From Diadema antillarum (taxonomy: Eukaryota): 64,000 bases of DNA. The stretch spans positions 2,080,064 through 2,144,063 of the forward strand of contig NW_027271164.1 in assembly GCF_040938485.1 (NCBI RefSeq), in the 5' to 3' direction. The notes under the pieces were generated by a model. That model searched no databases and was not told where the DNA came from. It saw nothing but the letters and a program-made list of their open reading frames with translations. Below are positions 1 to 24,960 of the stretch, one piece after another; position 1 is the first letter of the stretch, and each line of letters begins with the position of its first letter. Position numbers and translations under genes: made by a program.

Positions 1-81
1 TCCGTAGAATTCGTACGACATCGCTGTTCCCGTCCGAAATCCGCCTCCGTGAATCCACACCATCACCGGAATATTCGATGA
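1..81 (-). CDS. CESL-0 exon 3 (truncated by window edge)
   Basis: Peptide [27 protein letters not shown]. Acceptor tcgcag at 82-87. Confidence 0.7.
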
Positions 82-99
82 CTGCGACATTTATGGATG

Positions 100-107
100 A
101 GGAGAGT

Positions 108-152
<45 letters not shown>

Positions 153-167
153 GGGGGGGGGGGGGGG
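100..167. repeat. (GA)n followed by a poly-G run of about 27 G
   Basis: Direct reading. The paralogous copy lies at 18966..19012. Confidence 0.9.
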
Positions 168-1014
168 CAATGAAAGAATCATACAAGGCTGACAATCTTT
201 TACTGAGAATGAAAAAGATGATAAGGAAACAGTGGTACCAGGGGATGTGGAGTGCCTTCCACCTTCCTCCTACCTGGTGCTACATTTTAAATTGTACTTG
301 TGAAATTCACTCCTCTCCCACCTTGTAATTCTCAGCACCCAATATCACAAAATTTGAGCAATGTTGAGATGAAATTACGACACAGGTGTTTTAAATTTTA
401 AAGGGAAATTCCGGTGGAGATGAAAGTTAGTCTGAAAAGAAGGAGTAAAATTTGCTTACAACATTGAAAATTTAATCAGAATCAGATGAAAAGTAAGGAA
501 GTTATGACATTTGAAGTTTCACTAATTTTCAGGTAACAGTTTTTGAACACGAGTCAATATGAATATGCAAATAGTGAAGTGATGATGTCATCCCCTCACA
601 ACTTGCCATATAATTTGTACAATTTCATTTTGACACTTCTTTTTTTTTTTCATTCAAACGCAATGATGCCCCAATCTCAAATCCTGATATATCTGACTGG
701 TTGTTATCATGAAGTTATTTATCCAGGAATAACATCATGTTTTACACTTCAGCAACAAAAACAGTGAATTTTCTTCATTTTTTTGTGTGTGTACAAGGTC
801 AATGGAAAACCAATGAAAACTGATGACATCATCAGCTGCTCACTTATTTGCATATTCATATCAACTGTACCAGAACTGTTCTGCAGAAATTAGCGGAACT
901 TCACAATTTCATGACTTCCCTAACTTCTATTCTGATCAATCAATTTTAACTGTTGTATTCGTAAGATTTTAGTCAATCTTACCAGACTGACTTATGAAGG
1001 ACTAGATTTTCTCT

Positions 1015-1430
1015 TTAAAAGGATGGTATAGTATTTGTACAGATGAGGATGGGGCTTTTAACTTTTTGCAAGATACAAAGAAACCACTTATGAAATAGTA
1101 CAGAGCATACCATTCTCAGAGGAATTCAAAGTGAATATGATGAAAACTTGCTCTGGAATGGCTGGGACATCCAAAAAACAAAACAAAACAAAACAAAACA
1201 AAGTAAATCAAATCGATCGTAATAAAAGCTGGGTCATAGCTTTCATTATTAGGATCGTTCTATTTTGGATATCTCAGCCATTTGAAAACCAATTTTTATC
1301 AAATAAATGTTCGATTCCTCTTGGAATTACATCCCCTCTCACATTTTGTAAGAGGTTTCTCATTATCTCACCAAAAATGTCAGAAACCTGAAGTTAGGTC
1401 TAAAGAAACCCCTACAGATCCCTTTAAGGT
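1015..1430. mobile_element. MITE-like palindromic element (family M1) in CESL-0 intron 2. It ends about 8 bp from the exon 2 splice donor and is absent from the paralogous CESL-1 intron.
   Basis: It shares GTACAG...GATATCTCAGCCATTTCAAAACC...CCCTTTAA structure with copies at 9650, 44788 and 45412. Confidence 0.55.
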
Positions 1431-1444
1431 AATTTCCCACTCAC

Positions 1445-1621
1445 AGATGTGCTTGGAGTGTAGACGTTGAGATAGAGACAATCCTCCGATCTGTTTGGGT
1501 AGAGAGGGTCAGGAATTTGTACGCAGGCTGGGGCAAACTCGGTGGCGTTTCTCTCTCCCGTCCATGGGGTCTTGCTTTCTGGCTTAGCGAAACGAGCAGG
1601 TGGATTGGCGTAGGGAACCCC
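1445..1621 (-). CDS. CESL-0 exon 2
   Basis: Peptide [35 protein letters not shown]...[14 protein letters not shown]. Acceptor cag, donor GTGAGT. Confidence 0.75.
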
Positions 1622-1844
1622 CTGTTTATGGAGTGTAAGAAAACATAAGCATTGTAATAACAATATCTTTTGTCAATTTCCTTATAACATGTATACATGT
1701 ATAACATGTATACAAGGCATTGAGAGTGAAACTGCATGATGCATTAAAAGCACAAATGATATACAGAAAAGACTGTAAAAACAGATTTGCGAAAATGTAC
1801 CACAATATTATACACAACGGATATACACTAAAGGCTAGTAACTG

Positions 1845-2165
1845 ATCATGGGAATCAGTGGGAATGCTGGGGATGCTTGTTCCATTCCTTGTGGGATTCA
1901 TCTAAGAGTATACATTATATATCTATTGTTGTGTGAAAATTATTTGCTTCAGAATGGTCTCATATTCAAGTAATGTGCAGTTTAATGTTTCCAGGTTAGC
2001 ATGCCTGTACAGTGGCGGGGCATTAAAATGCACATTACTTGAATATGAGACCGTTCTGAAGCAAACAATTTTCACGCAACAATAGATATATAATGTACTC
2101 TTAAATGAATCCCACAAGGATTGGAACAATCATTCCCCAGCATTCCAACTGATTCCCACTAATCA
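1845..2165. mobile_element. Hairpin (MITE-like) element of about 320 bp, a near-perfect palindrome, in CESL-0 intron 1. It is absent from CESL-1.
   Basis: Left arm ggaatgctggggatgcttgttccattccttgtgggattcat... Right arm ...atgaatcccacaaggattggaacaatcattccccagcattcc. The centre lies near 2010. Confidence 0.6.
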
Positions 2166-2685
2166 GTTACAGCCATCCCCTTTAAACAATATGAATACAT
2201 GTCATGGAAAGCTGTTTTGTGAGATTAGATTATACAGAGAGAGCACAGAATGTATAGGCCTACTTCTATTCTACCAATGTGTGTTTTTATTCACTGATCA
2301 CTTCAGTTTCTCCAGGGAGCAGAAAAATAATTCCCAGTTATTGTGACAAGGAAACATGAACGCTATTGAAGACAAGACCTATATGCTGATTAAACACTAA
2401 GAAGATACTGTCTGTAAAACGCATGAAAGTCAACAACATATTACATCTGGTCATAGTGCTCACTAACTTATTGGAACTAGAAAGACCAATTTTCTGCATG
2501 GGAACGCGGAAAATGCACTTGGAAAACCCATTCGCAACAGGAGCGAATTTGGAACTGAAGAATGTCAAATTGGCCTGTAAAATGACCGCCGAAATGAAGG
2601 CCGTGCACGTATGATACAAGAAGCCTTTATATAATTGGTATGACGAAAAACGAACACTGTACTAATGTAGTTGAAACTAATGGCA

Positions 2686-2772
2686 TTATCATTATTATTA
2701 TCATTATCATCATCATCATCATCATCATCATCAACAACATCATCATCATCATCAACAACATCATCATCATCA
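2686..2772. repeat. (ATC/ATT)n trinucleotide microsatellite
   Basis: Direct reading. It produces spurious poly-D, poly-I and poly-M ORFs in the track. Confidence 0.95.
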
Positions 2773-2882
2773 ATATAACCATCCGTAAAACTATATCCGA
2801 TAGAGTGCATGTATCAACACATACCTTGGTATTGAAATAAAAAGAGATTACCGATAGGATTTCTTCGGACAGCAACCCTTAC

Positions 2883-3044
2883 CAGAAATACATCGACATC
2901 GACTGTTTTGTTGATGAAGGTGTCTTCGCTGAATCGCACCGTTTTCCCCACAATGATTCCCTCAGCGACATTCACTACCGGGCTGCTGGCCCGACTTACC
3001 CCGAGGAAGGCACCGACCACCAGAACAAAAAGTTGAAGTTTCAT
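2883..3044 (-). CDS. CESL-0 exon 1 (signal peptide + N-terminus)
   Basis: ATG at 3044. Peptide MKLQLFVLVVGAFLGVSRASSPVVNVAEGIIVGKTVRFSEDTFINKTVDVDVFL. Donor GTAAGG follows CTG. Confidence 0.75.
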
Positions 3045-3245
3045 TTTCGCTATTGTCTAATGCGACTTGGCAGCACCAACAACATGCAATAAACTGTTCT
3101 GAAGGAAATTCTGCAAACTAATTACAACTTAAAACCCTACCAATCCCTCTTTGTTGTTTATCAAAGACTCGTATAATGTCATGTCATTGTTTGCTATATT
3201 CTATTTATACCCTCTATCTGTTTGCTTTACCAGTCAGGGAGACTA
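3045..3245 (-). promoter_or_regulatory. Candidate promoter-proximal region of CESL-0, conserved with the CESL-1 upstream region
   Basis: A conserved block including ctcgtataatgtcatgtcattgtttgctatattctatttataccct lies about 130 bp upstream of the ATG. Paralog similarity stops upstream of about 3245. Confidence 0.35.
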
Positions 3246-3942
3246 CCTATTTTGAGGGAAGATTGAAATCCCCCGTAGAGGGAACATTGAACCGCGAGCG
3301 GATGTTACGTAACGGAGCGACGCGATATGGTCAGAGCGAACCGTTACAGATGTTCTTTTTCCAGTCGCTATGAGAATAATTAACCGAGAGGGAGAGAGAG
3401 AAACACATGTACACACACGCAAGCGTACACACACGGCCCGGAGGCGCATTTTTAATTTACACGCAAGCCTGTGGCTTTTGGCAATTAAATTCAATGAAAC
3501 CGCTCCTGATGCGTCTATGCTTATTCTGTGGTACTATACATAAGAGTTCTGTGGGTACTGTACCCTCCGCTCGCGACGATTCGATTCGTACACGTGCATC
3601 AGTGAGTGTGTGCACGCGCTGAGAAAGTTTTGCTCGCCGTGGTAGACCCTCATCCAATTACTATACATGTAGTAGTACATGTATAAATACGTATAAAAAC
3701 GGGTGAGAGTGCGAAAAACGAGACAATACAAAACAAAACAAAAAATCTGACAAGAAGGAGAGGGGGAGAGAGAGAATCAGAAGGAAAGAGATAAAAAAAG
3801 CAATGAATATTCTGTGATATCTCATCAATCATGCACAACAGTGATGAATATTATTGCGGGTTCCATGGAAGATCACAACTTTATTGGTGTATGATGGGGA
3901 TGTGTAGGCCCCTAATGGGCTAGAGTGACCAAAGTTTATATA

Positions 3943-3993
<51 letters not shown>

Positions 3994-4899
3994 ATAAGTC
4001 CAAACATGTTGCGAATTCACGTATTGGCTACAAAATAATTATGTGGGGGAGGGAGGGGGGGGGGGGGAACCGAAGGTGAAGCCAATCCTGCCCGACCCCT
4101 CCGACCCCTCCCCCCACCGATATTGAAACGCATATCGACCAATAGGCTTACACAATGTCATGACGAGTAATGTATAATGTAACACTTTTTCGATCTCCGT
4201 AGATTGGTGATTGAAAAATTGACAGGAAAGATTGAAGGGAAAAGGAGTGGAGAAGAAGCGCATGGATGGAAAGCTTGAAGGGAGAGTAGTTGAAAGTTAT
4301 GGAATAGGCTATACAATGGTACATGTACATGTATCAGAAAGTTGTGAAATAACATGATCGCTTAAATCTATATACATTATGTACATATATTTATTTGTCA
4401 GCCTCCAACCCCCTCTGTTATATCTGTTGCTATTAAAGGCCCTAAATTTATCTTCATACTGATGGTATATTATTTTGTTTCTCAAACCTGCCCCTCTTTT
4501 CTTCATACTACTTTACACTCTGCATATTCATTTTCCGACCTCTCTCGACCTCCTCCTTTTTCAAATGCATAATTATGACTCCTGCATTTTTGTCCCTTCC
4601 TCGATCACTGCTTTAATTCTCATACAATTTATTTGTTTCTCATACTCTCTCTGTCTCTCCCCATCTCTCTTTCTCATGTTAAAACTTTACAATGTTTGTT
4701 TACAAGACCACTTTCTACTCTCTATACAGTGATCAGTTTGTCTAGAAACATGTTTAGTCAGTGCAAATATGTTGTGAAGGAAAATTACACCACTATTGCA
4801 TGAATTCATTACGCATTTTATTCACTTCTTTATGTTCAAGCACTTTTTTTTCATGAAGGTATACTGAGTATACAGATGTAATCTGATACTCCAATATTC

Positions 4900-7800
4900 A
4901 AGAAGACATTCTCAATACAAACTAGAACTATCACCCAATGTTGTATACACAGTTACTGACATTTGCCAAATCTCAAGTCAATTGCTCAAAACCTGAGTGA
5001 GTAAGTAAATAAATCAACAATTTCTATGTTTTTCATTAAAAATACTGTTACCATGGCAACACAATGTTTGACATTAAGAAAAAAAATGAAGTTTGCCCAG
5101 CTCTATCAGATAGCTGTCACATGTGCCAAATTTCAAGTCAAATGCTCAAAAACTGAGGGAGTTAAGTTAATCCACAATATTATTGTATGATTTTTATTCA
5201 AAATAAAATTATGCTGTCACCATATGTTGTGTCGAGCCCACTAATGTCAATAATATTCGACCACTAATATGGCTGTCGTATCTTTAAGCTATATGCTTAT
5301 TTGACGACAGTCTTCTGCATTTACGCTCCCGATCTTGTGCCATAATTCAGTGAGATCATTTATTTCGAATGGTTCGTGTTCTCTTACTCTTTTCGTTAAT
5401 CTGTACACGTATATCTCGGTTTTATATTCGAATGTACACACTGTATGTTCCATTCTCTTGTAAACAACAAGAAATGACTACTTAGTATTTCATTTTTGTA
5501 ATAAATGATCGATGCAGAAAATTCCTAATAAATTAATTTGAATTTGGATCGTGTAATGTCATAACATGTCGACAATAAATGTCAAAATCGGATTAACCAC
5601 AAATGTCATAACACGTCGACCAAAAATGTCAAAATTTCAATTTTTATTGCAAATGTGATAACACGTCGACGACAAATGTCATAACGACCACTGATGTCAT
5701 AACATGTCGACGACAAATGTCAAAATCGGATTAACCACAAACGTCATAACACGTCGACGACAAATGTCAAAATATAAATTTTTACTGTATATGTCATAAC
5801 ATGTCGACGACAAATGTCAACGACCATTAATGTCTTAACACCTCGACGACAAATGTCATAATGACCACAAATCACATGGGACAAATATCAAAGTCGGATT
5901 AACCACAAATATCATAACACATCGACGACAAATGTCAAAATTTCTGTCTTTATATACTGCAAATGTCATAACACGTCGACGACAATTGTCAAAATCGAAT
6001 TAACCACAAATGTCATAACGCGTCGACCACAAATGTCAGAATTTCCAAATTTACTGCAAATGTCATACTGCGTCACAGGGGAGGATCCAGGAATTCCGTA
6101 AAGGGGAGGCACCTTTACAAAATCAAAGTTTGGTGCAACCTCCTCCCTTTTTTTGATTTTATCAAAAATAGAGACGGGGAGGAGCGCCGCGGCCCCTTTA
6201 GATCAGCGACTGCGTCAGCCACAGGTTAATGGCAAAACCCAATGCTTGCATTACAAGGAGGCGACTTTTCAAAACTATACAAGCTGGCGCAACCCCCTAT
6301 TTTTTTTTCTTTTTATTTCTGTTGTTTGAACAAAAAAAAGGGTCATCAAAGGGGTTGCGCCCCCTCTCAACCCGCGATTGCGTCATCCACAAATGTCAAA
6401 ACTCATTGCTTGCATTTCATGGGCGGATCCAGGAATTCCGTGAAGGGGAGACACCTTTTCAAAATGAAAGGCTGGCGCAACCCCCCCCCCCTTGTTATTT
6501 TCCTCTTATTTCTTTTGTTTAAACGAAAAAAAGACAGAGAAGAAAGGAGTGGGTGCGGCAGTCTTTACTTTTGCAAAGGCGCCTCGCCTTTTCGGAATTC
6601 CGTGATCCGCCCCTGTAATGCAGCATTGGTTTTGCCATTAACATTTGTGGTCGTGTAACACATCGTGTTATGACATTTGCAGTAAAAATGGAAATTTTGA
6701 CGACGCAGTCGCGGATCTAGAGGGGGCGTGGCGCCCCTCCCCGTCTCTATATTTGCTAAAACAAAAGAAATAACATTAAAAAAGGGGAGGGGGTTGCGCC
6801 AGCCTTTGATTTTGTAAAGGCGTCTCCCCTTTACAGAATTCCTGGATCCTCCCCTGTGACGCGTTATGACATTTGCAGTAAATTTGGAGATCCACATATT
6901 TTGTAGTCGATGTGTTATGACATTTGTGATTAATTCGATTTTAACATTTGTCGTCGAGGTGGTATGGCATTTGCAGTAAAAACGGAAATTTTGACATTGT
7001 CGTCGACGTGTTATGACATTCGTCGTTAATCCGATTTTGATATTAGTCGTCGACGTGTTATGACATTAGTTGTCGTTATGAAATTTGTCGTCGACGTGTT
7101 GACATTTGCAGTAAAAAATTGATATTTTGACATTTGTCGTCGACGTGTTATGACATTTGTGGTTAATCCGATTTTGACAATTGTCGTCGACATGTTATGA
7201 CACTAGTGGTCGCTATGAAATTTGTCGTCGACGTGTCATGACATTTGCAGTAAAAATTGGAATTTTTGACATTTGTCTTCGACATGTTATGACATTAGTG
7301 GTCATTATGACATTTGTCGTCGACGTGTAATGACATTAGCGGTCGTTATGAAATTTGTCGTTTACGTCTTATGATGACATAAGTGGTTGTTATAACATTA
7401 CACGATATAAATTCAAATTAATAAGGAATTTTCTGCATCGGTCATATGTTACATTACAAAAATGAAATAGTCATTTCTTGTTGTTTACAAGAGAATGGAA
7501 CATACAGTGTGTACATTCGAATATAAAATTGAGATATACGTATACAGATTAAAGAAAAGAGTAAGAGAACACGTCGATTGGGAACCATTCGGAATAAATG
7601 ATCTCACTGAATTATGGCACTTAAGATCGGGAGTGTGAATGCAGAAGACTGTCGTCAAATAAGCATATAGCTTAAAGATACGACAGCCACATTAGTGGTC
7701 GAATATTGTTGACATTGATGGGCTCGACACACTATGGTGACTGCATAATTTCATTTTGAATGAAAATCGTACAATGATATTGTGAATTAACTTAAAGGAC

Positions 7801-8100
7801 AAGTCCACCTTCATATACATGTGGATTGAGTGAATGCAGCAATATCAATAGAGCACAACAGTGAAAGTTTGGGGGAAATCCGACAATCCGTTTCAAGAGT
7901 TATGAATTTTTAAAATATCTGCGTAGTCACTGCTGGATGAGACGACTACTACAGTGTTTGATGTCATATGCGTACAACCATTTTTTCTTAATATTAAACA
8001 TTGTCTTGCCATGGTAACAGTATTTTTAATGAAAATCATAGAAATTGTTGATTCATTTACTTACTTACTCAGGTTTTGAGCACTTTACTTGAGATGTGGC
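4900..8100. repeat. Perfect palindrome (foldback structure) of about 3.2 kb. Its arms contain tandem sub-repeats of about 60 bp that are rich in GTCGAC sites. A GC-rich nested hairpin (6060-6870) sits at the centre near 6480.
   Basis: 5230..5520 is the reverse complement of 7450..7745. 4980..5090 is the reverse complement of 7960..8100. The arm sub-repeat unit is aaatgtcataacacgtcgacgacaaatgtcaaaatcggattaaccac. Confidence 0.8.
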
Positions 8101-8102
8101 AT

Positions 8103-9460
8103 TTTCATCACTTTGATTTGATTTGATATTGTTTATTTATTCTCTGTATGACATCATTTACAATTCTATATATATATATATATATATATATTACGGAGAA
8201 ACTGAATACCTAATTTCAACCTATCTGGTTTTGAAAGTGTTGTTTATACTCTGAAAGTTTCATTTTCCTTGAAATTTTATTTCTAACATTTTAGGTAATT
8301 TTATGCAAGACGTTTTAAGAAAACGATGCCAACCTAACTATCATGAGATGATGCTCTAGTGAGACTAACGGCAGACTTAACTTTAAGAGAATCTTTATAC
8401 ATCTGCAGATGGCGGCAAAGTTCCTTGTAAAATTCACTTATTCACTGAAACATCACTGCTCAGGCTGATTGGAAAGCAAGCAGCAGCAACACAGTAAGGC
8501 TGCCGGAGATGCAAACAGTATTCCCCAACTATATTATTCAAATGTTAAAAAAATGGTAAAAGTTATTATAGTCATGTCTTGACAGCAGTAGTACGTTATT
8601 AGCATCATTGATTGTGACTATGTCTCAAAATGTAATCATCTCTTTCCCAGGTGAAAATCAAAATTGAAGAACAGATGCAATTGAAAAATCATGTGTTTAG
8701 AGTTGAAGCGTTCGAGAATAGTTTTGCTTCCGAGCTCAATTGAAATATGGAATAAGCTAGGTTCTAACTTAAAATAATTAAAGTGATATTGGTCCTAAAC
8801 TATTCTGACGGACTGACGGAGTCACGATGAAGAACCGTTTCGGTTGTCGTTCTCATAAGGTTTTCAATCAGTTACAGGTAGACCCTTGCTTGTACTCCTC
8901 GAATTCTTGTTGCCATCCAGTCAGTCCCGTTTTCCAGATACTAAAACTGTCTTGCCAATCCTTCTCTAGTTCGTCGATGTCTCCTGATAAAGAGGAATGA
9001 CATGATTTATCACATTTCATGTGCTCTTAACTCTTTTCAAAGTCTACATTTTGCTTCCGAATATTTGAAGATACCTCATAGGGTTGCACTGCTACATAGG
9101 GCCTAATATAATGTGAACAATGATGTTGAGTAGCGTTCCATCAACGTGTTATCCGATCATTCACATCATCTTTAAAATCTTAACTTTTCTAACATGGCTG
9201 TCATGGAAGCTTTGAATGCTTGTAAGTAAGTAACCGCTCGACTGACGGTTTTAACCTAACCATCATGGCATGATAGATGATAAGCAACCGCTCGACCGAC
9301 GGTTTTTAGTCCCCTATCCGAAAGACAAGGCAATGAGGGACAAGTGCCAAGGAACACATCCGCCGCATCCAGGAGTATTCGAACCAAAAACCTTGGATAG
9401 AAGCTTTGTATTAAGTCACCATTACCACCGTGGCACCATAGACGTAGAAATGGCATTCAA
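8103..9460. repeat. Duplicated 1.35-kb block, copy 1. It matches 23646..24960 and carries the orphan CESL terminal exon together with a tRNA-like (SINE-like) tail.
   Basis: The two copies are collinear with a few indels. A GGTTCGAATCC T-arm-like motif lies at the block edge, on the minus strand. Confidence 0.75.
8868..8983 (-). pseudogene. Orphan duplicate of the CESL-2 terminal exon. It has an intact acceptor, the same 37 codons and a stop. It lies 3.2 kb downstream of the CESL-1 stop with no upstream partner exons.
   Basis: It sits inside the duplicated block 8103..9460, which matches 23646..24960. It translates to SGDIDELEKDWQDSFSIWKTGLTGWQQEFEEYKQGSTCN followed by a stop. Confidence 0.55.
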
Positions 9461-9649
9461 CTCCAAGCTAGACCTTTCAGAATCAAGAAAACATGCTGTT
9501 TGTGGAAAAAAAAAGTCTTCCCCTGACCCGTGTCGGTATCACAATGGAGATTTCAATGCAGCTAATTTAATCCCATGACATCATACAGTATTTATATGAT
9601 TTGTCTGGTGTGTGTAATTCCTGGTAATTTCATGTAGCGATTGCCAATT

Positions 9650-10040
9650 TAAAGGGGTGGTACAGTATTGGTGGAGGCAAGGATTGGGATTTTAACTTTT
9701 TAAGATACCAAGAAACCCCTTATTGAAATAGTATAAAGTATACCATTCTAAGACAAATTCCAAGTTAATTTGATGAAAATAGATTTTGGAATGGCTGAGA
9801 AATTAAAAAACAAAGTAAAACAAAGTGATCGTAATGAAAGGTGGGTCTTACCTTTTATTAGGATTACTCTGTTTTGGGTATCTCACCCATTTCAAAACCA
9901 ATTTGTATCGATTAAATGTTGAATTTCTCTTGGAATTTGATCTTTCATATTCCATACGAGGTTTCTCATTATCTCCTCCCAAAATGCTAGAACCTGAACT
10001 TGTAGGTCTCATCCAAAACTATACGATCCCTCTAAAGAAA
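9650..10040. mobile_element. MITE-like element, family M1
   Basis: ttaaaggggtggtacagtattggtggaggcaagg ... gggtatctcacccatttcaaaaccaatttgtatcg ... ccctctaaag. Confidence 0.5.
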
Positions 10041-12231
10041 AAGAGACAAATAGGACTTGACCATAACATGGTTCATCTCTTTTTTTTGTATTCTCCTTTG
10101 TTTTGTATCCTATCTTGCTCTTTACTTCGTAAAATAATTGCGAGATAGTGTTTGTCAAATCATCCGAAAAGAAACGTCTGTGTATTGCTCAAACAGAATC
10201 TATATAGGGTAATCTAACTGAAATCCTAATGTAAAGTTAGCTTGAAATATTACGTGGCTGGATATTTTAAGAGATGCTTATGATGTACAAGACAAGCCAA
10301 TGGAGACAAATTAATATAATGACGTCACTTGGCGAATATAAGCATTCATACTTGGATCAAAATGTGATCAGATCTATTCATGTATAATCACGAACACTCA
10401 AATACGTCACCTGAACAACTGTGTTTGCTTTGCTCCCGTGACTTTATGCCAGAATTGTTGAATACTTTTGGGGCAGGAAGATAAGTTGTGCATTGCAACT
10501 TACTCAAGTGAAATCTGCATTTATTCGAACAACTATCAAAATATACAAAGTAAACATGATATATGAACATGCATTTCTCTCAATGCAAAACATTGGTTGC
10601 ATGAACCGTGATTAACGCTGCAGTTTGGTAGCTTTCAAAAGAGGAAGTTGCATGCGCAAAATAGTGTATAGTATTTTTCCCTTTTGTAGTTTGCATGCTG
10701 ATCAGTTTTGGGGCGATATTAGTGTGTTAAGTATCAGACAAATGACGTTGTGGATTCTATAATCTGATGCTCCTATGGGGACGAACAAGAGGTACATTGT
10801 GGGGTCTCCATATATGTTTTGCTTTATTTAGTCAGGTACTGTGGGGGGTATAAATGACATTATGGGAGCATTCTGTCTATAATGGGAGAAAGATACTACA
10901 CAAGAAAAGGAGAAAGAAGTACTACGGAGTATAAATATTGTTTATTGCGATAGTTGTTGCAAAGACTTAAGTATAGTTTAAGGATGTAGACATACTGTCA
11001 AAATGATTTATGTGTGTATCAAAATCAAAAGTTTGCAGTATGTTTTAGCCATTTTTATTTTCAATATTTAATGTGAATTCATATTTGGGGCGTATATTAT
11101 ATTCTCATTTTATCACACACATAAATACATGTGAGAAGAATCTTCTGTGCCCCGAGTATTAACAGTCATTCTCTTTTGTTTATCCTTACTTTTGGTCTTA
11201 ATTGTACCCGTGCTCCTCATCCTGTTCCCCTCACTAGGCTTTTGTTGGGACCTATACACTCAACAAGCTTTGCTTTTTAGTAGGTTCCATCGTATTTTTC
11301 TTTGCATCCTTTACTTTGATTGAAAATGACACATCGACCGTTATGTATTATTTTTGTATTCCTATTTCTTCATGTATATATCCAAGCTGGACATTCTGTA
11401 TTATTATATTTTGTTATATACCAGATATTTTCCATCGAGAAATACGAAAATAAAATTGAAATTGAAATTGAAATTGAAATTTGAACACACGCACATATAT
11501 ACACACATATACATACACATACGCGCACACACACAAACACACACACACTCATATACTGTTGATATCTGTTACTAAATATCTCACCCGGTTCACAGATATT
11601 ACAGATGCACAGATAATATATGCATGGCAACAGGTAATGCAGTATTTATTTCAACCAAATGATTTTACAAGCTTTTCATTGCCGATAACTAAAAGTACAT
11701 AAAGATCGCAGAGTTTCAAATTGTACATAGTTTTGCAGGTTCCAATTTTCATTGATTTTTTTTCACACCTGTTCCAATCACAATATCCTGAGACACAATC
11801 TCCTTATGTTACACGGCCAACTTTTACGGAAAGCATATAGTAGTCGTGTTTCACATAGACGCTGTGGAGAAGCAAAAGTATAAAAGTATACCCCGATATT
11901 AAAATTCCTTTAATCATTGAAGTGGTTTCGGTGCTAGATAAATCCTCGAGATTATGAAGTCACTCACTGTTGTTTGATGATTATCATAATTATGATAATA
12001 TTTTGCTGTTGAAACGATATGGATAGATCTTTGGCTTCAGTTGCTCACAAAAAGCCAAAGGCAAATGATAACGGAGTCCAGAATGGCCGTATCCATTGTC
12101 GTATCCCAGTCAAGTACAGTCACGTTTAATGTTATTGTCTCTCACATTCTCTCTCGCCTGTGTCACTATAATCAATCTTGCATGAACATTATCACGTGAT
12201 TATTGCCTATTATGTCGTCATTGTTGTAGCC

Positions 12232-12347
12232 TCAGTCACAGCTGGTTTCTTGCTGATATTCCTCGAACGCTTGTTGCCACTCAGTCATGTCTGTCTTCCA
12301 GCCATCGTAACTTTCCCGCCATTCTTGTTCCACGGGGTCCAAACTCT
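12232..12347 (-). CDS. CESL-1 exon 10 (terminal)
   Basis: Peptide ESLDPVEQEWRESYDGWKTDMTEWQQAFEEYQQETSCD followed by a stop (TGA at 12232-12234). Confidence 0.75.
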
Positions 12348-12723
12348 CTGTTTGGTTCAAGAAAAAAGGCTTAAAGTCCATGATTCTAGAAACAAAATAT
12401 TGTCCCTTTTATTAGGACTGTATTTAAGAATGTACACTTATCAACTTGACAAAACTGTTCACGTACCCCACGGTTATCCCAATTTGAGGTATAATCTTTT
12501 TGTTGCTGTCGTTGTTGTTATTATTATTCATCAGTTCTCACTCAAAATGTTAACAGGAAAAAGCTGTTTTCACACACAGAGTTCAACAAAACTGGTGAAT
12601 TTGTTAATGAATAGATTTAATCTGTCAGTTTCGATTCCATTTCTTATTTTGATATCAATCTTTTGTCATGTCGAGATAGAGAAGTAAATTTTCACGAGTG
12701 TTAAAGCTGATGAGTAAATATAC

Positions 12724-16840: not shown

Positions 16841-17534
16841 TTTGATGATTTTTCAAATTAACATTGATTGTTTTTTTCGTTGGAGGAGCATTTTGCTCGG
16901 TCGCAGTCACACTGCACGATATGCGTGCTCAATGTCAATGCGTGTGCAAGGCCGCTGAAAATGCATCGCGCTCTACACTGTTGGTGCAAAATTGCACCGG
17001 GGACGTTGCGGCGCTCGTTGGTGGCCGAATACTGTTGCAGTAGACATTTGCATTCAACCCTTGCATTGAATAATTCCCGTAGACACTAATCATAGGGGTA
17101 ATTGCCTAGGGGGTACGTAAATTTTGTTTTTCTTTTTTGCTTTTGTGGATACCATCAAAGATCGTACACTCATATGACCTTTGATATTTGATGATTTTTC
17201 AAATTAACATTGATTGTTTTTTTCGTTGGAGGAGCATTTTGCTCGGTCGCAGTCACACTGCACGATATGCGTGCTCAATGTCAATGCGTGTGCAAGGCCG
17301 CTGAAAATGCATCGCGCTCTACACTTTTGGTGCAAAATTGCACCGGGGACGTTGCGGCGCTCGTTGGTGGCCGAATACTGTTGCAGTAGACATTTGCATT
17401 CAACCCTTGCATTGAATAATTCCCGTAGACACTAATCATAGGGGTAATTGCCTAGGGGGTACGTAAATTTTGTTTTTCTTTTTTGCTTTTGTGGATACCA
17501 TCAAAGATCGTACACTCATACGACCTTTGATATC
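16841..17534. repeat. Tandem duplication of 2 x 347 bp in CESL-1 intron 4
   Basis: 16841..17187 matches 17188..17534. The track ORFs 16868..17089 and 17214..17435 are identical. Confidence 0.85.
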
Positions 17535-18285: not shown

Positions 18286-18797
18286 CTGGTAGGAGGTAAC
18301 ACGACAGAAACATTATCCATCATTTTATTTAGGAGTAGTTGAATTAGTTTCGTTTGTATTTGGTCAAGAGTAGTTATTTTATATGGAATATATAGACATG
18401 CTTGACAGATATCAATCTAGAATCATTTATGGAAATAAATTAAGGAACTGATTGGTTGGAGTTGGAACAATGTGGTATGGCAGATAGGTTTAGACTCTTA
18501 AAAAGGAATCATAGGTTCGAATCCTGTGCTGCTGTTAACAGGGAGGTGAGTCTCACCTCCCTGCTATTAATGAACTAACAAGTGTGTACGATTCTCGTCC
18601 TGTCCCTTTAAGCTTGAAAAGTAATCCTGTATTATTTGTTGTTTTTGAAATCTAGTGTGTGAAAAACAAAGGTTTAGATATCGATCTTATCACAAGGTTT
18701 CTTTATTGCTATATCATGTTACTACGTCGACCACCTCTATGCAACAGAAGTGTACAACTATCATTCACTCACAGAACAGAATGCATTCAGATCTTAC

Positions 18798-18957
18798 CTG
18801 TTGTAAAGTGTGCAAAGATTGACAGTCGGTAGTTTATGGTTACGATTATGACGTCACCCACAGCAACCAATGGCAATCCGTAGAATTCGTGCGACATCGC
18901 TGTTCCCGTTCGAAATCCGCCTCCGTGAATCCACACCATCACCGGAATATTCGATGA
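18798..18957 (-). CDS. CESL-1 exon 3
   Basis: Peptide [53 protein letters not shown]. Acceptor ttgcag, donor GTAAGA, ends in phase 1. Confidence 0.75.
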
Positions 18958-18976
18958 CTGCAACATTATGGGTGAG

Positions 18977-19007
<31 letters not shown>

Positions 19008-19913
19008 GGGGGAAGCGAAGAAAGAATCATACACGGCTGACAATATCATAATACTAAGAATGACAAAAAAGATGAGAAGGAAACAGTGGTACCAGGGGAT
19101 GTGGAGTGTCTTCCACCTTCCTCCTACCTGGTGGTACATTTTATTTGTGAAACTCGTTCCTCTCCCACCTTGTAAGTCTCACCAAATATCACAAAATTTG
19201 AGCAGTGTTGAGATGAAATTACGACACAGGTGTTTTGAATCTTAAAGGGAAATTCCGGTGCAGCTGAAAGTTCGTCTGAAAAGAATGCGTAAAAGTTCTT
19301 TAGCACAACATTGAAAATTTGATCAAAATCAGATTAAAAATAAGGAAGCTTTGACATCTAAAGTTTCACTTATTTTCGGAAACTGTTCTTGAACAGTCAA
19401 CATGAATATGTAAATAGTGAAGTGATGATGTCACCCCCTCATAACTTGCCACATAATTTGTACAATTTCATTTTGACCTTTCCTTTTTTTTTTTCATTAA
19501 ATGCAATGATGCCCCAATCTCAAATCCTGGTATATCTGACTGGTTATTAATTTGAAGTTATTCAACCAGGAAAAACATCATGTTTTACACTTCAGTAACA
19601 AAAAACAGTGACTTTTCATCATTTTTTTTTTTGTACACGATCAATGGAAAACTGGTGAAAAATGATGACATCATCAGCTCACTTATTTGCATATTCATAT
19701 CAACTGTACGAGAATTGCTCTGCAGAAATTAGCGAAATTTCACAATTTCATAACTTCCTTAATCTTTATCAGATTTTGGTTAATTAATTCTCACTGTGGT
19801 ACTCGCATGAGTTTACTCTGTCTTATCAGACTGATTTAAAACTGGATTGGAATTCCTTTTTAACCCTCTGCGTGCCACAGTAACTTCCAGTCAATAGGTA
19901 GTTTCCCACTCAC

Positions 19914-20090
19914 AGATGTGCTTGGAGTGTAGACGTTGAGATAGAGACAATCCTCCGATCTGTTCGGGTAGAGAGGGTCAGGAATTTGTACGCAGGCTGG
20001 GGCAAACTCGGTGGCGTTTCTCTCTCCCGTCCATGGAGTCTTGCTTTCTGGCTTAGCGAAACGAGCAGGTGGATTGGCGTAGGGAACCCC
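19914..20090 (-). CDS. CESL-1 exon 2
   Basis: Peptide [59 protein letters not shown]. Donor GTGAGT. Confidence 0.8.
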
Positions 20091-20989
20091 CTGGAGTGTC
20101 AGATGACATACATAAGTTTTGCAACAGCAATACTTTCATCAGTTCCATCAAAATACGAAATCTAACTCAGGCAATGACAATGGAGCTCATGCGTTAATTT
20201 TACATATCAAACAAGAGAAGGTTGAAAGACTATAAAGGCACCTTTGTGAACTTTGATTTGATTTGATTTGATTTGATTTATTTCTGCTTAATTCCGTTTC
20301 ATCAAGATATGATTGTGTACAAGTCAGTTATGACAAACAGTATATCAACACATAGTTTTTAGTACAAAACAAAACAAATACAAACAGCTCAGGGAACTTG
20401 AACAGAAGGGTCTCCAAAATAAGCCGAGGCTTGACGGTATGGAGACCCTATACTTAGCTACTCTGGATAGAAGAAGGGATAGAGAGAGAGAGGGAAGGGT
20501 AGGGGGAAGGGGGAAAATTACAGAGTGTATGTGTACCACTCCTACTACTTTACTTTAAAAGTAATGATAATAAATGTAATACGATAATAATATTAAAGTT
20601 AACACGTTCAGTTGCCTTTCCCGTAGTAATGACCGAATATGCACTGTGAAAATAGTAATGAATGAATACAAAGCATTCTACATGAGGTTATCTGTCATGA
20701 AATAACAAACTATATCGTGGTTAAATGTGCACAGTAATGGTAAGGCACATGGTATACATACATAATGTGCTCATATACATAATATACATATGTGCCTATC
20801 CTATACATACACATACATACCCATATTTATGATATATATATGGATAGATAAATAAATCGATGTATGTATGCACACATACATGCATCATGTACCACGTACA
20901 TATTTATATACATTTGATTATGATACAATATAGATATCAAAATGTTATCCTTGGGAATACTGCTTGAGGAGGTGAAGTTTCACAGCCTT

Positions 20990-21400
20990 CTTGAATGAAT
21001 ACATAGTGGTCATGTTTTTAATTTCGTGTCTGAGTCTGAGTGTCTGATAGAATGATGCGCGAGTGCAGTTTTGGGGTTAAATAAATGTAAATTTGTGGAT
21101 TGTCTGGTAGGATAGGAGTGAATCTCTGAATTTGACGGAAATATTCTGCTAAATATTGGAGGCAAGAGATATGACTTGAGGCAACACATAAATACAGCTT
21201 TTTGGAGAAAGTTTATGTCATTTATCTTAACTCTTAAGAGATTTAAGCTGACAAAACAAGGGGTCGGTGTGATCTCGAGAGCGTGCTCGACTGCACACTC
21301 AATTGCTCTTTTCTGCAGGAGAAGTATACGGTCTGTGATACATTTGTGGGTTGCCCAAATAATGTTGCAATACGATATATATGGCAGGAACAAAGCATTA
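20990..21400 (-). mobile_element. 3' fragment of the same CR1/L2-like LINE family, in CESL-1 intron 1
   Basis: Minus-strand ORF 21010..21393 reads LPYISYCNIIWATHKCITDRILLLQKRAIE...HSYPTRQSTNLHLFNPK. This is homologous to the C-terminal region of the 39718..41238 ORF (LPYISYCNVVWGT...LQKKVIRI...HSYPTRICRNFHLLNPK). Confidence 0.6.
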
Positions 21401-22163
21401 TACAGGTTAAATAGTATACACGAGTTGGAAACTTTTACACTGCAGATATACCATATCTATAACACTGTGTATCATACGTCGGGGAAGGCTGTTTTTTTGT
21501 TACATTATTCGATTATAATGTCTAATCCCATTCGATACCATTGCGTAGTGCCAATTAGGGCTTCTAGCCCATCAATGTGATTGATCACACCGATAAACGC
21601 CTAGCAACGTGCAGAAAAATCAATCCCATTCGTTGAGAAACATGAACTCCATTGAAAACAACATCTATTCTGAATAAAGATTGAGAAGAGACCGTCTGTA
21701 GAACACATGAAAAGCAACGACACAGTATATCTGGTCATAATGGTCACTAGCTTATTGGAACTAGAATGACTAGTTTTCTGAAATACGAAATCAATTGAAC
21801 TGTGGTCTGACTTTCTACAATAAATGCGATGTTATTTATATCCAAAATAATATGTAGGACCGCGTAAAATGCATTTGGAGAAGCCATTCGCAGCGGAAGA
21901 CAATTGGATCCGACAGTATGTCATAGTGGCTTGTAAAATGACTGCGAAAAATTAAGGCGGTGCACGTATGATATATGAAGACTTACATGGTTGGCATAAC
22001 GACGAAAAACGCTCACTGTACTAATGTACTTGAAACTATATAGTGGCATTACTATAATCATCATCAATAGCCATCCGTAAAACTTCGATATAGAGTGCAT
22101 AATATACACGCACACCTTGGTATTGAAAGAAAAAGAGATTACGGATAGAACAGCAACCCTTAC

Positions 22164-22325
22164 CAGAAATACATCGACATCGATTGTTTTGTTGATGAAG
22201 GTGTCTTCGCTGAATCGCACGGTTTTCCCCACAATGATTCCCTCAGCGACATTCACTGCCGGGCTGCTGGCCCGACTTACCCCGAGGAAGGCACCGACCG
22301 CCAGAACAAAAAGTTGAAGTTTCAT
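22164..22325 (-). CDS. CESL-1 exon 1
   Basis: ATG at 22325. Peptide MKLQLFVLAVGAFLGVSRASSPAVNVAEG...DVDVFL. Donor GTAAGG. Confidence 0.8.
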
Positions 22326-22520
22326 TTTCGCTATCTAATGCGACTTGGCAGCACCGACAACATGCAGTAAACGGTTTCGAAGGAAATTCTGCAAAAAGTT
22401 AGACCTTGAAACTCTACCCATCCCATTTTGCTGTTTATCAAAGGCTTGTATAATGTCATGTCATTGTTTGCCATATTCTATTCATACCCTTTATCTGTTT
22501 GCTTTACCAAGCAAGATAAA
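22326..22520 (-). promoter_or_regulatory. Candidate promoter-proximal region of CESL-1
   Basis: It carries the same conserved block, cttgtataatgtcatgtcattgtttgccatattctattcataccct. Confidence 0.35.
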
Positions 22521-23216
22521 GAAAGATTTTTTGACTGAATAATGCTTTTAAAGGAGATAAGCAACGTTCTAATAGATTCTGCCGAAGAGCCTCGATGTTT
22601 TTCATTCTCACGTTGTTGTTCTATACCTGCCTAGGATCCTTAACCTTATTAAAAACAATGATTATCATTAACTCAAAATGTAAAATCAAATTTAAACAAT
22701 ATACGTTACCAGAAAATATGTTGGAAAGCAATATTCTCGCTATGCTGCATGGAATTGACCCTTTCCCCCTTAGAAACTAGATACCATTCCGTCCAATCGA
22801 AGTGACCTTTAATCAAGTACTGATAAGACTTATTATGTTCATTCTCCAAGATAATACGCATGCACAACGGATAAGAGTCACATTCCTTCGTCTTTTGAGA
22901 TCTGTATCACGACTGAGATTGTTTGTGCCAACGATGATGGCAAGCATGAGTTAATCTAGAGTTTCAATGAACATCACCCACCTCTTAGGATTGTATGTTA
23001 TTGGAATTGTTTCGCTGATCTCGATATCTTATACAAACGCCCAAAAAGGGGAAAAAAGAAAGATAACGATTGAAATAATCTCTGATTTTGAGTTGGAGGG
23101 CTTAAATTCAAGTGAATTTTTTATTGTATTGTTATTTAACTGAAGACTCATTAAGTGTAAATAAGAGTTTATGTGTACATATAAATGCATAATCATATTT
23201 CCACGTTCATATATAC

Positions 23217-23218
<2 letters not shown>

Positions 23219-23258
<40 letters not shown>
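23219..23258. repeat. (GT)n microsatellite
   Basis: Direct reading. Confidence 0.9.
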
Positions 23259-23259
<1 letters not shown>

Positions 23260-23645
23260 TGTGCTTGTGTAATATTAACTTGCTATCCCAAATATCGATC
23301 ACATAAAGCAACGACCTCGATTTGTTGCGTAATTCGATGGAGAGAGAAAGAGGAAGTGACAATTATTAGCTATTATAATAAGATATGACTTGTATTTATC
23401 TCCGTGCTTGTGCACGTGTGTGTCTTTGAGTATGCCACAACTGATTACACATCATACAGAAAACAGTTTATTAGAACAATTAATGCATTGATTGGACCAA
23501 AAGAAGCTTATTTTGCTGCAGAAACACAAACAACTTCTTCCTCTTTATCATGTACAAGGGTTTAAAAATTAAAAATTTAATGCACAAATAGGGAGATAAA
23601 ATCCATCATGATCAGGCTTTATACGATAAAATTGATTAACAAGTC

Positions 23646-23722
23646 ATTTTCATCACTTTGATTTGATTTGATATGGTTTATTTATTCTCCGTATGACATC
23701 ATTTACAATTCTTTTTAAAGCG

Positions 23723-23772: not shown

Positions 23773-24960
23773 CGGAGAAACTGAATACCTAATTTCAGCC
23801 TGTCTGGTTTTGAAAGTGTTATTTAAACTCTGAAAGTTTCATTTTCCTTGAAATTTTATTTCTGACATTTTAGGTAATTGTATGCAAGACGTTTTAAGAA
23901 AACGATGCCAACCTAACTATCATGAGATGATGCTTTAGTGAGACTAACGGCAGACTTAACTTTCTTTAAGAGAATCTTTGTACATCTGCTGATGGCTGCA
24001 AAGTTCCTTGTAAAATTCACCTATTCACTGAAACATCACTGCTCAGGCTGATGGGAAAGCAAGCAGCAGCAACACAGTAAGGCTGCAGGAGATGCAAACA
24101 GTAATCCCCAACTATATTATTCAAATGTTAAAAAATGGTAAAAGTTATTATAGTCATGTCTTGATAGCAGCAGTACGTTATTAGCATCATTGATTGTGAC
24201 TATGTCTCAAAATGTAATTATCTCTTTCCCAGGAGAAAATCAAAATTGAAGAACAGATGCAATATTGAAAAATCATGTGTTTAGAATTGAAGCGTTCGAG
24301 AATCGTTTTGCTTCCGAGCTCAATTGAAATATGGAATAAGCTAGATTCTAACTTAAAATAATTAAAGTAATAGTGGTCCTAAACTCTTCTGACGGACTGA
24401 CGGAGTCACGATGAAGAACCGTTTCAGTTGTCGTTCTCATAAGGTTTTCAGTCAGTTACAGGTAGACCCTTGCTTGTACTCCTCGAATTCTTGTTGCCAT
24501 CCAGTCAGTCCCGTTTTCCAGATGCTAAAACTGTCTTGCCAATCCTTCTCTAGTTCGTCGATGTCTCCTGATAAAGAGGAATGACATGATTTATCACATT
24601 TCATGTGCTCTTAATTCTTTTCAAATTGTACATTTTGCTTCCGAATATTTGAAGATACCTCATAGGGTTGCACTGCTACGTAATGTAATGTGAGCGATGA
24701 TGTTGAGTAGCGTTCCATCAACGTGTTATCCGATCATTCACATCATTTTTAAAGTCTGAACTTTTCTAACGTGGCTGTCAAGGAAGCAATGAATGCTTGA
24801 AGTAAGCAACCGCTGGACTGACGGTTTTAAGTCCCCTATCCGAAAGAAAACGCAATGAGGGACAATTGCCAAGGAACTCATCCGCCAAATCCAGGTGGAT
24901 TCGAACCACAAACCTCGGATTGACACTCCATCGTCTTTTCCACTGAGACACAGCATCCAA
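23646..24960. repeat. Duplicated 1.35-kb block, copy 2. It contains the functional terminal exon and 3' flank of CESL-2.
   Basis: See copy 1. Confidence 0.75.
24452..24567 (-). CDS. CESL-2 exon 10 (terminal)
   Basis: Peptide DIDELEKDWQDSFSIWKTGLTGWQQEFEEYKQGSTCN followed by a stop. Acceptor ttatcag. Confidence 0.75.

Follow-up and report, generated by a model that had tools for sequence, protein, structure and literature searches.

Between the esterase genes CESL-0 and CESL-1, in the 64-kb stretch of DNA analysed here (the window), lies a terminal exon that has no upstream exons of its own. The question raised by this locus is where such an orphan exon came from, and whether it could be used by the neighbouring gene. 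The exon is located on the minus strand at 8868..8983 and is 116 nt long, consisting of 2 nt, 37 codons and a TGA stop. Its translation, GDIDELEKDWQDSFSIWKTGLTGWQQEFEEYKQGSTCN, is a predicted tetramerisation peptide of the AChE (WAT/T) type with 37 residues, in which W9, W16 and W23 (7-residue spacing) and a near-terminal C36 could be read directly. In comparison to the terminal exon of CESL-2 (24452-24567) a single difference was found, AGT/AGC, both coding for Ser. The AG acceptor was retained (context ...ctctttatcAG), the 40 nt upstream of it were identical between both copies, and the AATAAA signals were kept at 8281 and 8141/8137 (minus strand). The preliminary description of this DNA had reported exactly such an exon, with its AG, 37 codons, stop and one synonymous difference, and had placed it 3.2 kb downstream of the authentic terminal exon of CESL-1. 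Both statements were borne out, as the CESL-1 terminal exon (12232..12347) is also on the minus strand, and the end of CESL-1 exon 9 was found at 12724 as described.

The terminal-exon family has five members in the window, and the other four each form the 3' end of a CESL gene. The orphan exon is therefore not the interior of a transposon. With the Pfam model PF08674 (AChE_tetra) the orphan peptide scored 21.9 bits (E = 1.4e-4) against a cutoff of 25 bits, and the CESL-2 peptide scored the same, whereas the CESL-1 terminal-exon peptide reached 26.3 bits, above the cutoff. The catalytic domains were equally close to carboxylesterase 1 and to cholinesterases. When a CESL-1 exon was searched against proteins, a single match at 38% identity was returned, and exact-pattern scans of a metagenome collection, for the exon as well as for the SINE core described below, returned none.

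Based on blastn, the exon is part of a longer copy of the CESL-2 3' end. Positions 8100-9254 (copy A) paired with 23645-24830 (copy B), both on the minus strand, the latter being the original 3' part of CESL-2, from the end of intron 9 through the terminal exon into the 3' flank. Copy A comprises the CESL-2 3' UTR and flank (8100..8867, K2P 0.037), the exon, and 263 nt from the 3' end of CESL-2 intron 9 (8984..9254), including a 29-36-nt fragment of the 3' tail of a SINE, SINE-B, at 9226-9254. Alignment with MAFFT gave 1146 aligned positions with 96.1% identity, 45 substitutions, 6 indel events including a 34-nt deletion, and a K2P of 0.040 between the copies. Exon, adjoining intron and 3' flank were copied together at similar identity (99.1%, 93.9% and 96.3%, respectively). 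Identity was uniform along the block (93-100%) except for the last 85 nt (9170-9254), which were 10.7% diverged and held 9 of the 45 substitutions (Fisher p = 0.004 as compared to the rest). The sole CESL-2 exon in copy A was exon 10. Homology halted within intron 9 (24568-25550 in CESL-2), no counterpart of CESL-2 exon 9 (25551-25735) was found near copy A, and past 9401/24923 homology was gone (48% identity).

The duplicated block of the preliminary description was thus recovered, with other dimensions. It measures 1.16 kb and not 1.35 kb, and its high identity stops at 9254/24830 and not at 9460/24960. As the SINE body beyond this point is separate, the intron 9 part amounts to 263 nt at high identity, or 356 nt with the SINE body, instead of the ~390 bp proposed. 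The wording 'perfectly preserved' holds for the encoded peptide and not for the whole block, which carries 4% substitutions, the 34-nt deletion and other indels. The view of the block as a young relic of a partial CESL-2 duplication was upheld; the duplication was at the DNA level, with intron and 3' flank included, and blastn detected exactly two copies in the window, neither of which matched anything else there.

Beside the right end of copy A lies a second SINE of the same family. SINE-B, in CESL-2 intron 9 (24806..24957, minus strand), has a tRNA-like head at 24887-24957 with a B-box at 24897-24907, and this head matched the full Rfam tRNA model RF00005 (1-71) at 21.9 bits, where the gathering score is 29 (231 nt searched, E = 0.02). 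SINE-A (9281..9401, minus strand) has a tail, a body, a B-box (GGTTCGAATAC) and its own flank, unrelated to that of SINE-B, and no tRNA-like head. Its body was 88.4% identical to 24803-24923 (K2P 0.126), a divergence significantly above that of the block (Fisher p = 8e-4). With its own flank, and 88% identity as compared to 96% for the block, SINE-A is a separate copy, which would mark the start of the next unit. The exact motif GGTTCGAATCC was seen at 24897-24907 of copy B, whereas copy A has GGTTCGAATAC in its place; a third GGTTCGAATCC at 18514 showed no further similarity to this SINE family. No Rfam tRNA match was found in SINE-A, and neither ARAGORN nor Rfam at the gathering threshold detected tRNA genes. 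The SINE at the right edge, the tRNA-like segment with which the block was said to end, is 88% identical and of a different layer, and the sub-threshold tRNA-like head was seen in SINE-B only. SINE-A and SINE-B are the only two copies of the family in 64 kb, with no further copies of SINE or block in the window. They are in direct orientation, and the distance between them, 15.5 kb, equals the offset between the blocks.

The right junction lies ~30 nt inside the SINE-B tail on the B side and 0-26 nt from the SINE-A tail on the A side. The order is a SINE-B tail fragment, a filler of 22-26 nt (9253..9280) and then the full SINE-A tail; a single in-register chimeric SINE was absent at this junction. 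Positions 9253-9274 of the filler (AACCTAACCATCATGGCATGAT) matched block-internal positions 8331-8352 (equivalent to 23910-23931) at 19/22, differing from the template at 3/22, and in local alignment 0/500 shuffles attained the observed score. The SINE beside copy A is not SINE-B and has a flank of its own, and both filler and a duplicated SINE tail separate it from the block, which was therefore not carried along as 3' flanking sequence of its SINE. The SINE-mediated transduction of a stand-alone copy suggested in the preliminary description was accordingly not supported, SINE-A being a distinct, 88%-identical element. The SINEs seem to have served as homeologous pairing sites for the junction.

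On the left, copy A passes from ...GATGAAAATG straight into the right terminus of a 3.1-kb foldback-type non-autonomous transposon (4964..8101), the block edge and the transposon terminus coinciding to the nucleotide. The junction shares a 2-nt CA microhomology (...GTGGCA followed by TTTTCATC as compared to ...AGTCA followed by TTTTCATC). The terminal arms of the transposon (4964-5084 / 7981-8101) were 93% complementary and the inner arms (5162-6216 / 6702-7795) 79%. It contained subterminal tandem repeats of 23/47/137 nt, no ORF of transposase size (the longest being 138 aa), and as target-site duplication only an ambiguous 4-nt ATTT. Capture of the fragment by the transposon, in a Pack-MULE/Helitron-like way, was considered and rejected, as the block is outside the inverted termini and copy B has no such element alongside.

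The block is also collinear with a larger paralogy between the 5' parts of CESL-0 and CESL-1, on the same strand, in the same order and with offsets of 15.5-19.3 kb. The 5' part of CESL-0 (1..3232, minus strand), with exon 1 from ATG 3044, exon 2 from 1621 and the start of exon 3 at 1-75, corresponded to 18877-22509 of CESL-1 in three blastn segments (1-1018/18877-19863, 1427-1678/19896-20144 and 2319-3232/21611-22509). Exons 1 and 2 of these two genes were 98-100% identical and the introns 80-95% (about 87%), whereas the CESL-3 copies of the same exons showed 66-74% identity. CESL-0 and CESL-1 are by far the closest paralogues in the window. Divergence within this pair was uneven, with about 0.04 in exons and block and about 0.13 in introns, and in intron 2 12.5% of positions differed. 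For non-coding sequence K2P was 0.037-0.064 in the block but 0.14-0.24 in the CESL-0/CESL-1 introns, which makes the block 3-4 times less diverged (Fisher p = 3e-13). In CESL-1 intron 1, a 148-aa ORF suspected to be LINE-derived had no Pfam match.

The homology edge at 3232/22509 is sharp. Non-homologous stretches also occur inside the paralogy (1018-1427 as compared to 19863-19896, and 1678-2319 as compared to 20144-21611), and since replaced segments are common there, the gap of 3233-8099 as compared to 22510-23644 is not exceptional. In local alignments of 3233-4963 with 22510-23644, and of the 160 nt beside each boundary, scores did not exceed those of shuffles. The absence of homology left of the foldback element means that there is no proof that the transposon merely interrupts a longer copy. 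The two non-homologous gap segments were unique in the window, microsatellites aside. That part of the presumed unit which falls in the window was collinear but uneven in identity (96% in the block, about 87% in introns), the left 9.6 kb of the first unit, including the CESL-0 3' flank, being beyond it.

The orphan exon is most likely an ordinary leftover of a local DNA duplication. In the specific form of this explanation, to which we give about an even chance, a tandem duplication of ~15.5 kb between two SINEs would have made CESL-0 from CESL-1 and left the exon at its trailing edge, after which the exon would have been homogenised with its source. To account for the two copies with their boundaries, collinearity, divergence layers and junction filler, we infer a single 15.5-kb event as the source of all, a pairing role for the SINEs and later conversion. 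The start would have been two diverged tRNA-derived SINE copies in the same orientation, 15.5 kb apart, SINE-A ~3 kb downstream of CESL-1 and SINE-B within CESL-2 intron 9. With the SINEs as guides, everything between them would have been duplicated, either by unequal exchange or by template switching during replication. The duplicated segment would have held the whole of CESL-1, which became CESL-0, and the 3' end of CESL-2, with 263 nt from intron 9, the WAT-peptide exon and ~0.8 kb of 3' flank, which became the orphan block. The join would have been imprecise, with SINE-A following the SINE-B tail piece only after 22 nt of filler, the template of which lies 0.9 kb within the block. The paralogy would afterwards have been fragmented by indels and by the insertion of transposons, among them the foldback element at 4964-8101. 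The surviving 1.1-kb island would have been homogenised with its source by gene conversion, which would explain its 96% identity in comparison to about 87% for the CESL-0/CESL-1 introns.

Several features favour the tandem duplication, among them the collinearity, the position of the right junction at the two SINE tails and the separate identity of SINE-A. An 'old' level of divergence persists beside the junction (10.7% in the last 85 nt, 3/22 in the filler, 12.5% in CESL-0/CESL-1 intron 2), and the templated filler is a signature of repair or template switching. Template-switch signatures of such kind have been described at duplication join-points (PMC6902434), SINE pairs guide such rearrangements and SINE/SINE deletions are common (PMC6071635), and partial duplicates at duplication edges are very frequent in animals (PMC3449122). 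Against it, the lower divergence of the block than of the CESL-0/CESL-1 introns means that a single event needs an extra step homogenising ~1.07 kb, and conversion tracts are typically a few hundred bp (PMC3924818). The sharp edge at 3232/22509 could itself be an older duplication junction, the left edge at the transposon terminus is equally well explained by a break there in a separate event, and the right junction is not a clean chimeric SINE, unlike in classical SINE/SINE rearrangements. The preliminary description had proposed a duplication of 1.35 kb. The partial copying of CESL-2 that this implies was retained, whereas a tandem duplication of ~15.5 kb fits the collinear CESL-0/CESL-1 5' paralogy better than a separate event of 1.3 kb does.

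The strongest competitor is a separate, younger event, which we consider possible though doubtful. At the right end of the foldback element, beside SINE-A, a double-strand break or a stalled fork would have been repaired by a templated insertion of the SDSA, MMBIR or alt-EJ type, with 1.16 kb copied from the nearby CESL-2 3' end and the template tethered by SINE-A/SINE-B homology. The CESL-0/CESL-1 duplication would then be older and unrelated, with its junction at 3232/3233. The uniformly lower divergence of the block, the sharp edge at 3232/22509 with no homology in between, the left junction exactly at the transposon terminus with its CA microhomology, and the templated filler all agree with such an insertion, and the fragility of long palindromic elements also counts in its favour. 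It would, however, be a coincidence, put at roughly 4% for random sites up to 30 kb away on each side, that the copy landed with unchanged orientation and in the only intergenic interval where collinearity is kept, and the two independent SINE copies would have come to equivalent positions by chance. Very error-prone synthesis would also be needed, as ~11% of positions differ in the last 85 nt and 3/22 in the filler.

A functional explanation of the exon was judged unlikely. CESL-1 would read past its own poly(A) site, splice 12724 to 8983 and gain a CESL-2-type tetramerisation tail, and the near-perfect exon (1 synonymous change in 116 nt, as compared to ~4% in the flanks) would have been kept by selection or conversion. 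CESL-1 exon 9 (end at 12724), when joined in silico to the orphan exon, gave an in-frame product, ...LLAFTGDIDELEKDW...STCN and the stop. The intron phase is compatible, and acceptor, stop and both AATAAA signals of the orphan exon are intact for use after CESL-1 exon 9. As judged from the sequence, an alternative last exon of CESL-1 is therefore formally possible. However, the substitution count in the exon (1/116 nt) did not differ clearly from that elsewhere in the block (44/1030 nt; Fisher p = 0.08, and weaker if only copy A was free to change), so the low divergence of the exon is no evidence of constraint. Without upstream exons of its own, the orphan exon is most probably non-functional.

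Also unlikely is that the block is what remains of a complete gene: duplication of a unit of CESL-1 and CESL-2 would have been followed by a deletion between the intron 9 SINE and SINE-A that removed exons 1-9 from the CESL-2 copy. The same collinearity and SINE-associated junction that suggest the tandem duplication also agree with this, and SINE/SINE deletions are common (PMC6071635). It takes two large events as compared to one, and 9402-12228 holds no trace of CESL-2-like upstream sequence, the matches there being to transposon families only. An assembly artefact, in which a haplotype variant of the CESL-2 3' end was misplaced, is very improbable. Alleles of highly heterozygous invertebrates can differ as much as two copies at 96% identity do, but the window has no gaps and zero N bases, both flanks are unique and run without a break into a SINE and a complete transposon, the filler gives the junction a specific structure, and the CESL-0 region is far too diverged from CESL-1 for alleles.

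Least probable of all is an RNA-mediated copy, either a 5'-truncated retrocopy of unspliced CESL-2 pre-mRNA or a SINE-B read-through (3' transduction): the gene-3' end of the block, 807 nt past the stop and 32-38 nt past the last AATAAA(TAAA), could be an mRNA cleavage site, and the 5' end of the block is inside a SINE, but the 3' end of copy A carries no poly(A) or other tail, no convincing target-site duplication was found, intron sequence was kept, only 29-36 nt of SINE-B are contiguous at high identity, the neighbouring SINE is a distinct copy, and the filler suggests DNA repair. Retrocopy and SINE transduction were set aside on these grounds, the source SINE not having been carried whole. 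A multi-copy mobile unit was unsupported, as the block is present only twice in the window.

The value of the locus is mainly in annotation and in its history. The orphan exon is a caution for gene predictors, since a stray terminal exon of this kind should not be joined to CESL-1 or CESL-0. The esterase array may have grown by SINE-guided local duplications whose breakpoints cut neighbouring genes. The right junction gives a clean example of a templated filler, and a single paralogous pair shows uneven divergence. If the exon were spliced onto CESL-1, it would be a small natural experiment in which oligomerisation tails were swapped between esterases.

Alternative 3' exons are known from cholinesterase genes, where AChE has H, T and R splice variants and the T exon encodes the WAT tetramerisation peptide. 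The orphan exon resembles such T exons, as it is predicted to be a self-contained WAT-type terminal exon with the same intron phase, downstream of the T exon of CESL-1 itself. Unlike the alternative 3' exons of cholinesterases, it is at most a candidate for splicing, and the catalytic domains are no closer to cholinesterases than to carboxylesterase 1. The right junction is similar to templated-insertion junctions of alt-EJ and MMBIR, in which the filler is copied from nearby sequence (here 19/22).

The 96% island within an older paralogy of about 87%, with higher divergence at one edge, is like the outcome of interlocus gene conversion between tandem paralogues, although about 1.07 kb would have been homogenised here, more than in typical single tracts (PMC3924818); with only two sequences, conversion is not formally demonstrable. 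The locus also resembles human Alu/Alu rearrangements (PMC6071635) and microhomeology-guided template switching (PMC6902434) in having two diverged direct SINEs, tens of kb or less apart, at the breakpoints, together with signatures of repair. Its junction differs from that of Alu/Alu events, as ~30 nt of one SINE tail are followed by 22 nt of templated filler, after which the second SINE begins at its 3' end, and the SINE is here a tRNA-derived invertebrate element and not an Alu.

Partial duplicates of genes, found where tandem segmental duplications end, have been catalogued in C. elegans and Drosophila (reviewed in PMC3449122). Like those, the block is a young fragment that holds only the 3'-most exon of its parent with non-coding flanks, near the parent, in direct orientation and beside a neighbour gene presumed to be fully duplicated. 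It is unlike them only in degree, as it has diverged less than the other parts of the presumed unit, and this calls for later homogenisation or a second event. The orphan block reflects an ordinary kind of event.

The window (eukaryotic, 37.8% G+C, zero N bases) carries tandem genes of the carboxylesterase/cholinesterase family, CESL-0 to CESL-4, on its minus strand, with exon families repeating every ~11-20 kb. The N-terminal half of CESL-1 matched Pfam COesterase (E = 7e-44), and its similarity to solved carboxylesterase 1 structures was about equal to that to butyrylcholinesterase and acetylcholinesterase. Five minus-strand members of the terminal-exon family were detected in the window. 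Four of them end CESL-1 (12229-12352, exon 12347-12232), CESL-2 (24449-24572, exon 24452-24567) and CESL-3 and CESL-4 (36047-36170 and 53776-53899), and the fifth (8865-8988) is an orphan. The last exon of every array gene encodes an acetylcholinesterase-type tetramerisation (WAT/T) peptide, on genes with a catalytic domain equally near carboxylesterase 1 and the cholinesterases. Carboxylesterase-like genes that bear oligomerisation tails of cholinesterase type may be worth closer attention. Several local repeats were also observed in the array. About six tandem copies of a 116-nt unit (43790-44485, inner copies 95-97% identical) lie in the CESL-3 5' part, adjoining exon 2, and a CESL-1 intron holds two copies of a 300-nt segment, 100% identical and spaced at a period of 346 nt (16841-17140 and 17187-17486), a very recent local tandem duplication. 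Between CESL-3 and CESL-4, inverted repeats of 923 nt (47104-48026 and 50521-51443, 98% complementary) surround a 2.5-kb stretch; ORFs reaching at least 120 aa were not found in this region, and the pair represents a young non-autonomous element with long TIRs or else an inverted duplication of recent date.

Based on blastn and MAFFT, the block at 8100-9254 (copy A) pairs with 23645-24830 at the CESL-2 3' end (copy B) and with no other window sequence. The copies aligned over 1146 positions with 96.1% identity, 45 substitutions (K2P 0.040) and six indels, including a 34-nt indel that adjoins a TA microsatellite. The preliminary description had called the exon copy perfectly preserved and the duplication 1.35 kb long; the block as a whole is not perfectly preserved, and its high-identity part covers 1.16 kb, ending at 9254/24830. 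The duplicated exon itself is real, and its coordinates, frame and single synonymous difference were confirmed. The orphan exon (8868-8983, minus strand, 116 nt) has an AG acceptor followed by 2 nt, 37 codons and TGA, and differs from 24452-24567 only by AGT/AGC, Ser in both, with no difference in the 40 nt 5' of the acceptor. Its peptide, GDIDELEKDWQDSFSIWKTGLTGWQQEFEEYKQGSTCN, has three Trp at seven-residue spacing and a Cys adjoining the C terminus. It scored 21.9 bits against the Pfam acetylcholinesterase tetramerisation domain PF08674, under the 25-bit cutoff, in comparison to 26.3 bits, over the cutoff, for the equivalent CESL-1 peptide. On this pattern and match, the duplicated unit is a self-contained terminal module.

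On the left, block homology starts at 8100-8102, exactly where a foldback-type element of 3.1 kb (4964-8101) has its right terminus. This element is a near-complete palindrome (terminal arms 93% complementary, inner arms 79%) with subterminal arrays of 23-, 47- and 137-nt tandem repeats (unit AATGTCATAACACGTCGACGACA), and neither a transposase-size ORF nor a clear target-site duplication was found for it. At the join, only CA is common to the foldback terminus and the block, and the sequences left of the element and left of copy B did not match.

On the right, the block ends within a SINE. SINE-B lies on the minus strand in CESL-2 intron 9 (24568-25550, minus), with a head at 24887-24957 that matches tRNA over the full length but below threshold (21.9 bits; E = 0.02 when 231 nt were searched), a B-box at 24897-24907, and body and tail extending down to ~24806. 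Block-like identity reaches only the last 29-36 nt of its tail in copy A (9226-9254). Next comes the filler AACCTAACCATCATGGCATGAT, a 19/22 copy of block-internal sequence 0.9 kb away (8331-8352; score reached by 0 of 500 shuffles), and then SINE-A (9281-9401), which restarts at the tail and has a different tail-side flank. The tRNA-like segment previously placed at this edge belongs to a stretch, 9281-9401 against 24803-24923, with just 88.4% identity. This stretch is outside the block and exceeds it significantly in divergence (p = 8e-4), and homology stops beyond. No tRNA-like head was found in SINE-A, and the window holds only these two copies. As the SINE-B tail is fragmentary and is followed by filler and a separate, diverged SINE-A, the block was not carried by a SINE as had been suggested. 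The right junction lies at the 3' tails of two SINE copies that have diverged, and it carries a signature of imprecise repair. A CESL-1 intron (18456-18560) contains a third exact GGTTCGAATCC, at 18514-18524 on the plus strand, with a 15-nt hairpin after it; besides GGTTCGAATCC this segment had no similarity to the block-edge SINE, and it may represent another tRNA-derived element. A ~400-nt dispersed repeat (1014-1427, 9648-10035, 44821-45168, 45556-45749; 70-75% identity, both orientations) has one copy inserted in CESL-0 intron 2, missing from the CESL-1 counterpart, and another directly right of SINE-A.

The first two exons of CESL-0 and the beginning of its exon 3 (1-3232) are collinear with the CESL-1 5' part (1-1018/18877-19863, 1427-1678/19896-20144, 2319-3232/21611-22509), and the peptides differ at three residues in exon 1 and at none in exon 2. 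With the block pair, the same plus-strand order (gene 5' part, non-homologous gap, CESL-2-type 3' end) therefore occurs twice. The block-to-block offset, 15.5 kb, equals the SINE-A to SINE-B distance. The CESL-0/CESL-1 exons 1-2 (1427-1624 and 2880-3044 versus 19896-20093 and 22160-22325) show three synonymous (dS about 0.03-0.04) and three non-synonymous changes in 339 nt, the introns differ by 12-24%, and identity falls sharply at exon borders, which points to homogenisation confined to exons or to strong constraint at synonymous sites. CESL-0 intron 1 also holds a 342-nt near-perfect palindrome (1833-2174, 86% self-complementary) without CESL-1 counterpart; in CESL-1 the equivalent segment, 20144-21611, is unrelated and contains an ORF of 148 aa for which Pfam gave no match.

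Divergence was uneven, with K2P of 0.138 and 0.243 for CESL-0/CESL-1 introns 2 and 1 and 0.037-0.064 for non-coding parts of the block, which is less diverged than intron 2 (p = 3e-13). The block would thus be either a younger separate event or part of an old unit homogenised later. We give about an even chance to the latter, in which everything between SINE-A and SINE-B would have been duplicated in tandem, CESL-0 arising from the whole of CESL-1 and the orphan exon from the CESL-2 portion on the near side of SINE-B, with the block homogenised afterwards. The offset equal to the SINE spacing and the repeated order are the pattern expected from such an event. Homogenisation is also favored by the junction-side last 85 nt of the block, where divergence is 10.7% and 9 of all 45 substitutions fall (post-hoc test, p = 0.004), and by the filler, with 3 mismatches to its template in 22 positions; both values are near intron level. 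However, the homogenised stretch would be ~1.07 kb, and typical single conversion tracts are shorter (PMC3924818). A separate, younger templated insertion is possible, if doubtful: it would explain the low block divergence, the left edge exactly at a transposon terminus, as with a break there, and the sharp homology edge at 3232/22509, which could be the real old junction. It would, however, call for highly error-prone synthesis to account for the near-intron-level divergence beside the junction, and landing in the right orientation in the sole interval that keeps collinearity has, by rough estimate, a chance of a few per cent.

Other origins are minor. Duplication of two genes followed by deletion requires an extra event, and no trace of it was found within 9402-12228. 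Retrocopying or transduction would fit the block end ~35 nt past an AATAAA signal, but intron sequence is present, neither tail nor target-site duplication was found, and the neighboring SINE is the wrong copy; the earlier alternative, a young relic of partial duplication, is supported, with copying at the DNA level. Misassembly is opposed by the zero gaps and the specific junctions.

The orphan exon retains its acceptor, reading frame, stop codon and both AATAAA signals. It had been proposed as an alternative last exon of CESL-1, and the geometry holds: CESL-1 exon 9, whose end is at 12724, joins it in frame, and the terminal exon of CESL-1 is 3.2 kb upstream of it. However, it has no upstream exons of its own and lies beyond that terminal exon and its poly(A) signals, and its lower divergence than in its flanks is not significant (p = 0.08). 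By default, we read it as a probable non-functional relic, an ordinary by-product of local duplication within an array of tandem genes; the SINE-associated junction is easily read. Such fragments form a large share of young duplicates among animals (PMC3449122), and SINE pairs are established guides of such rearrangements, diverged copies probably acting through template switching (PMC6071635, PMC6902434).
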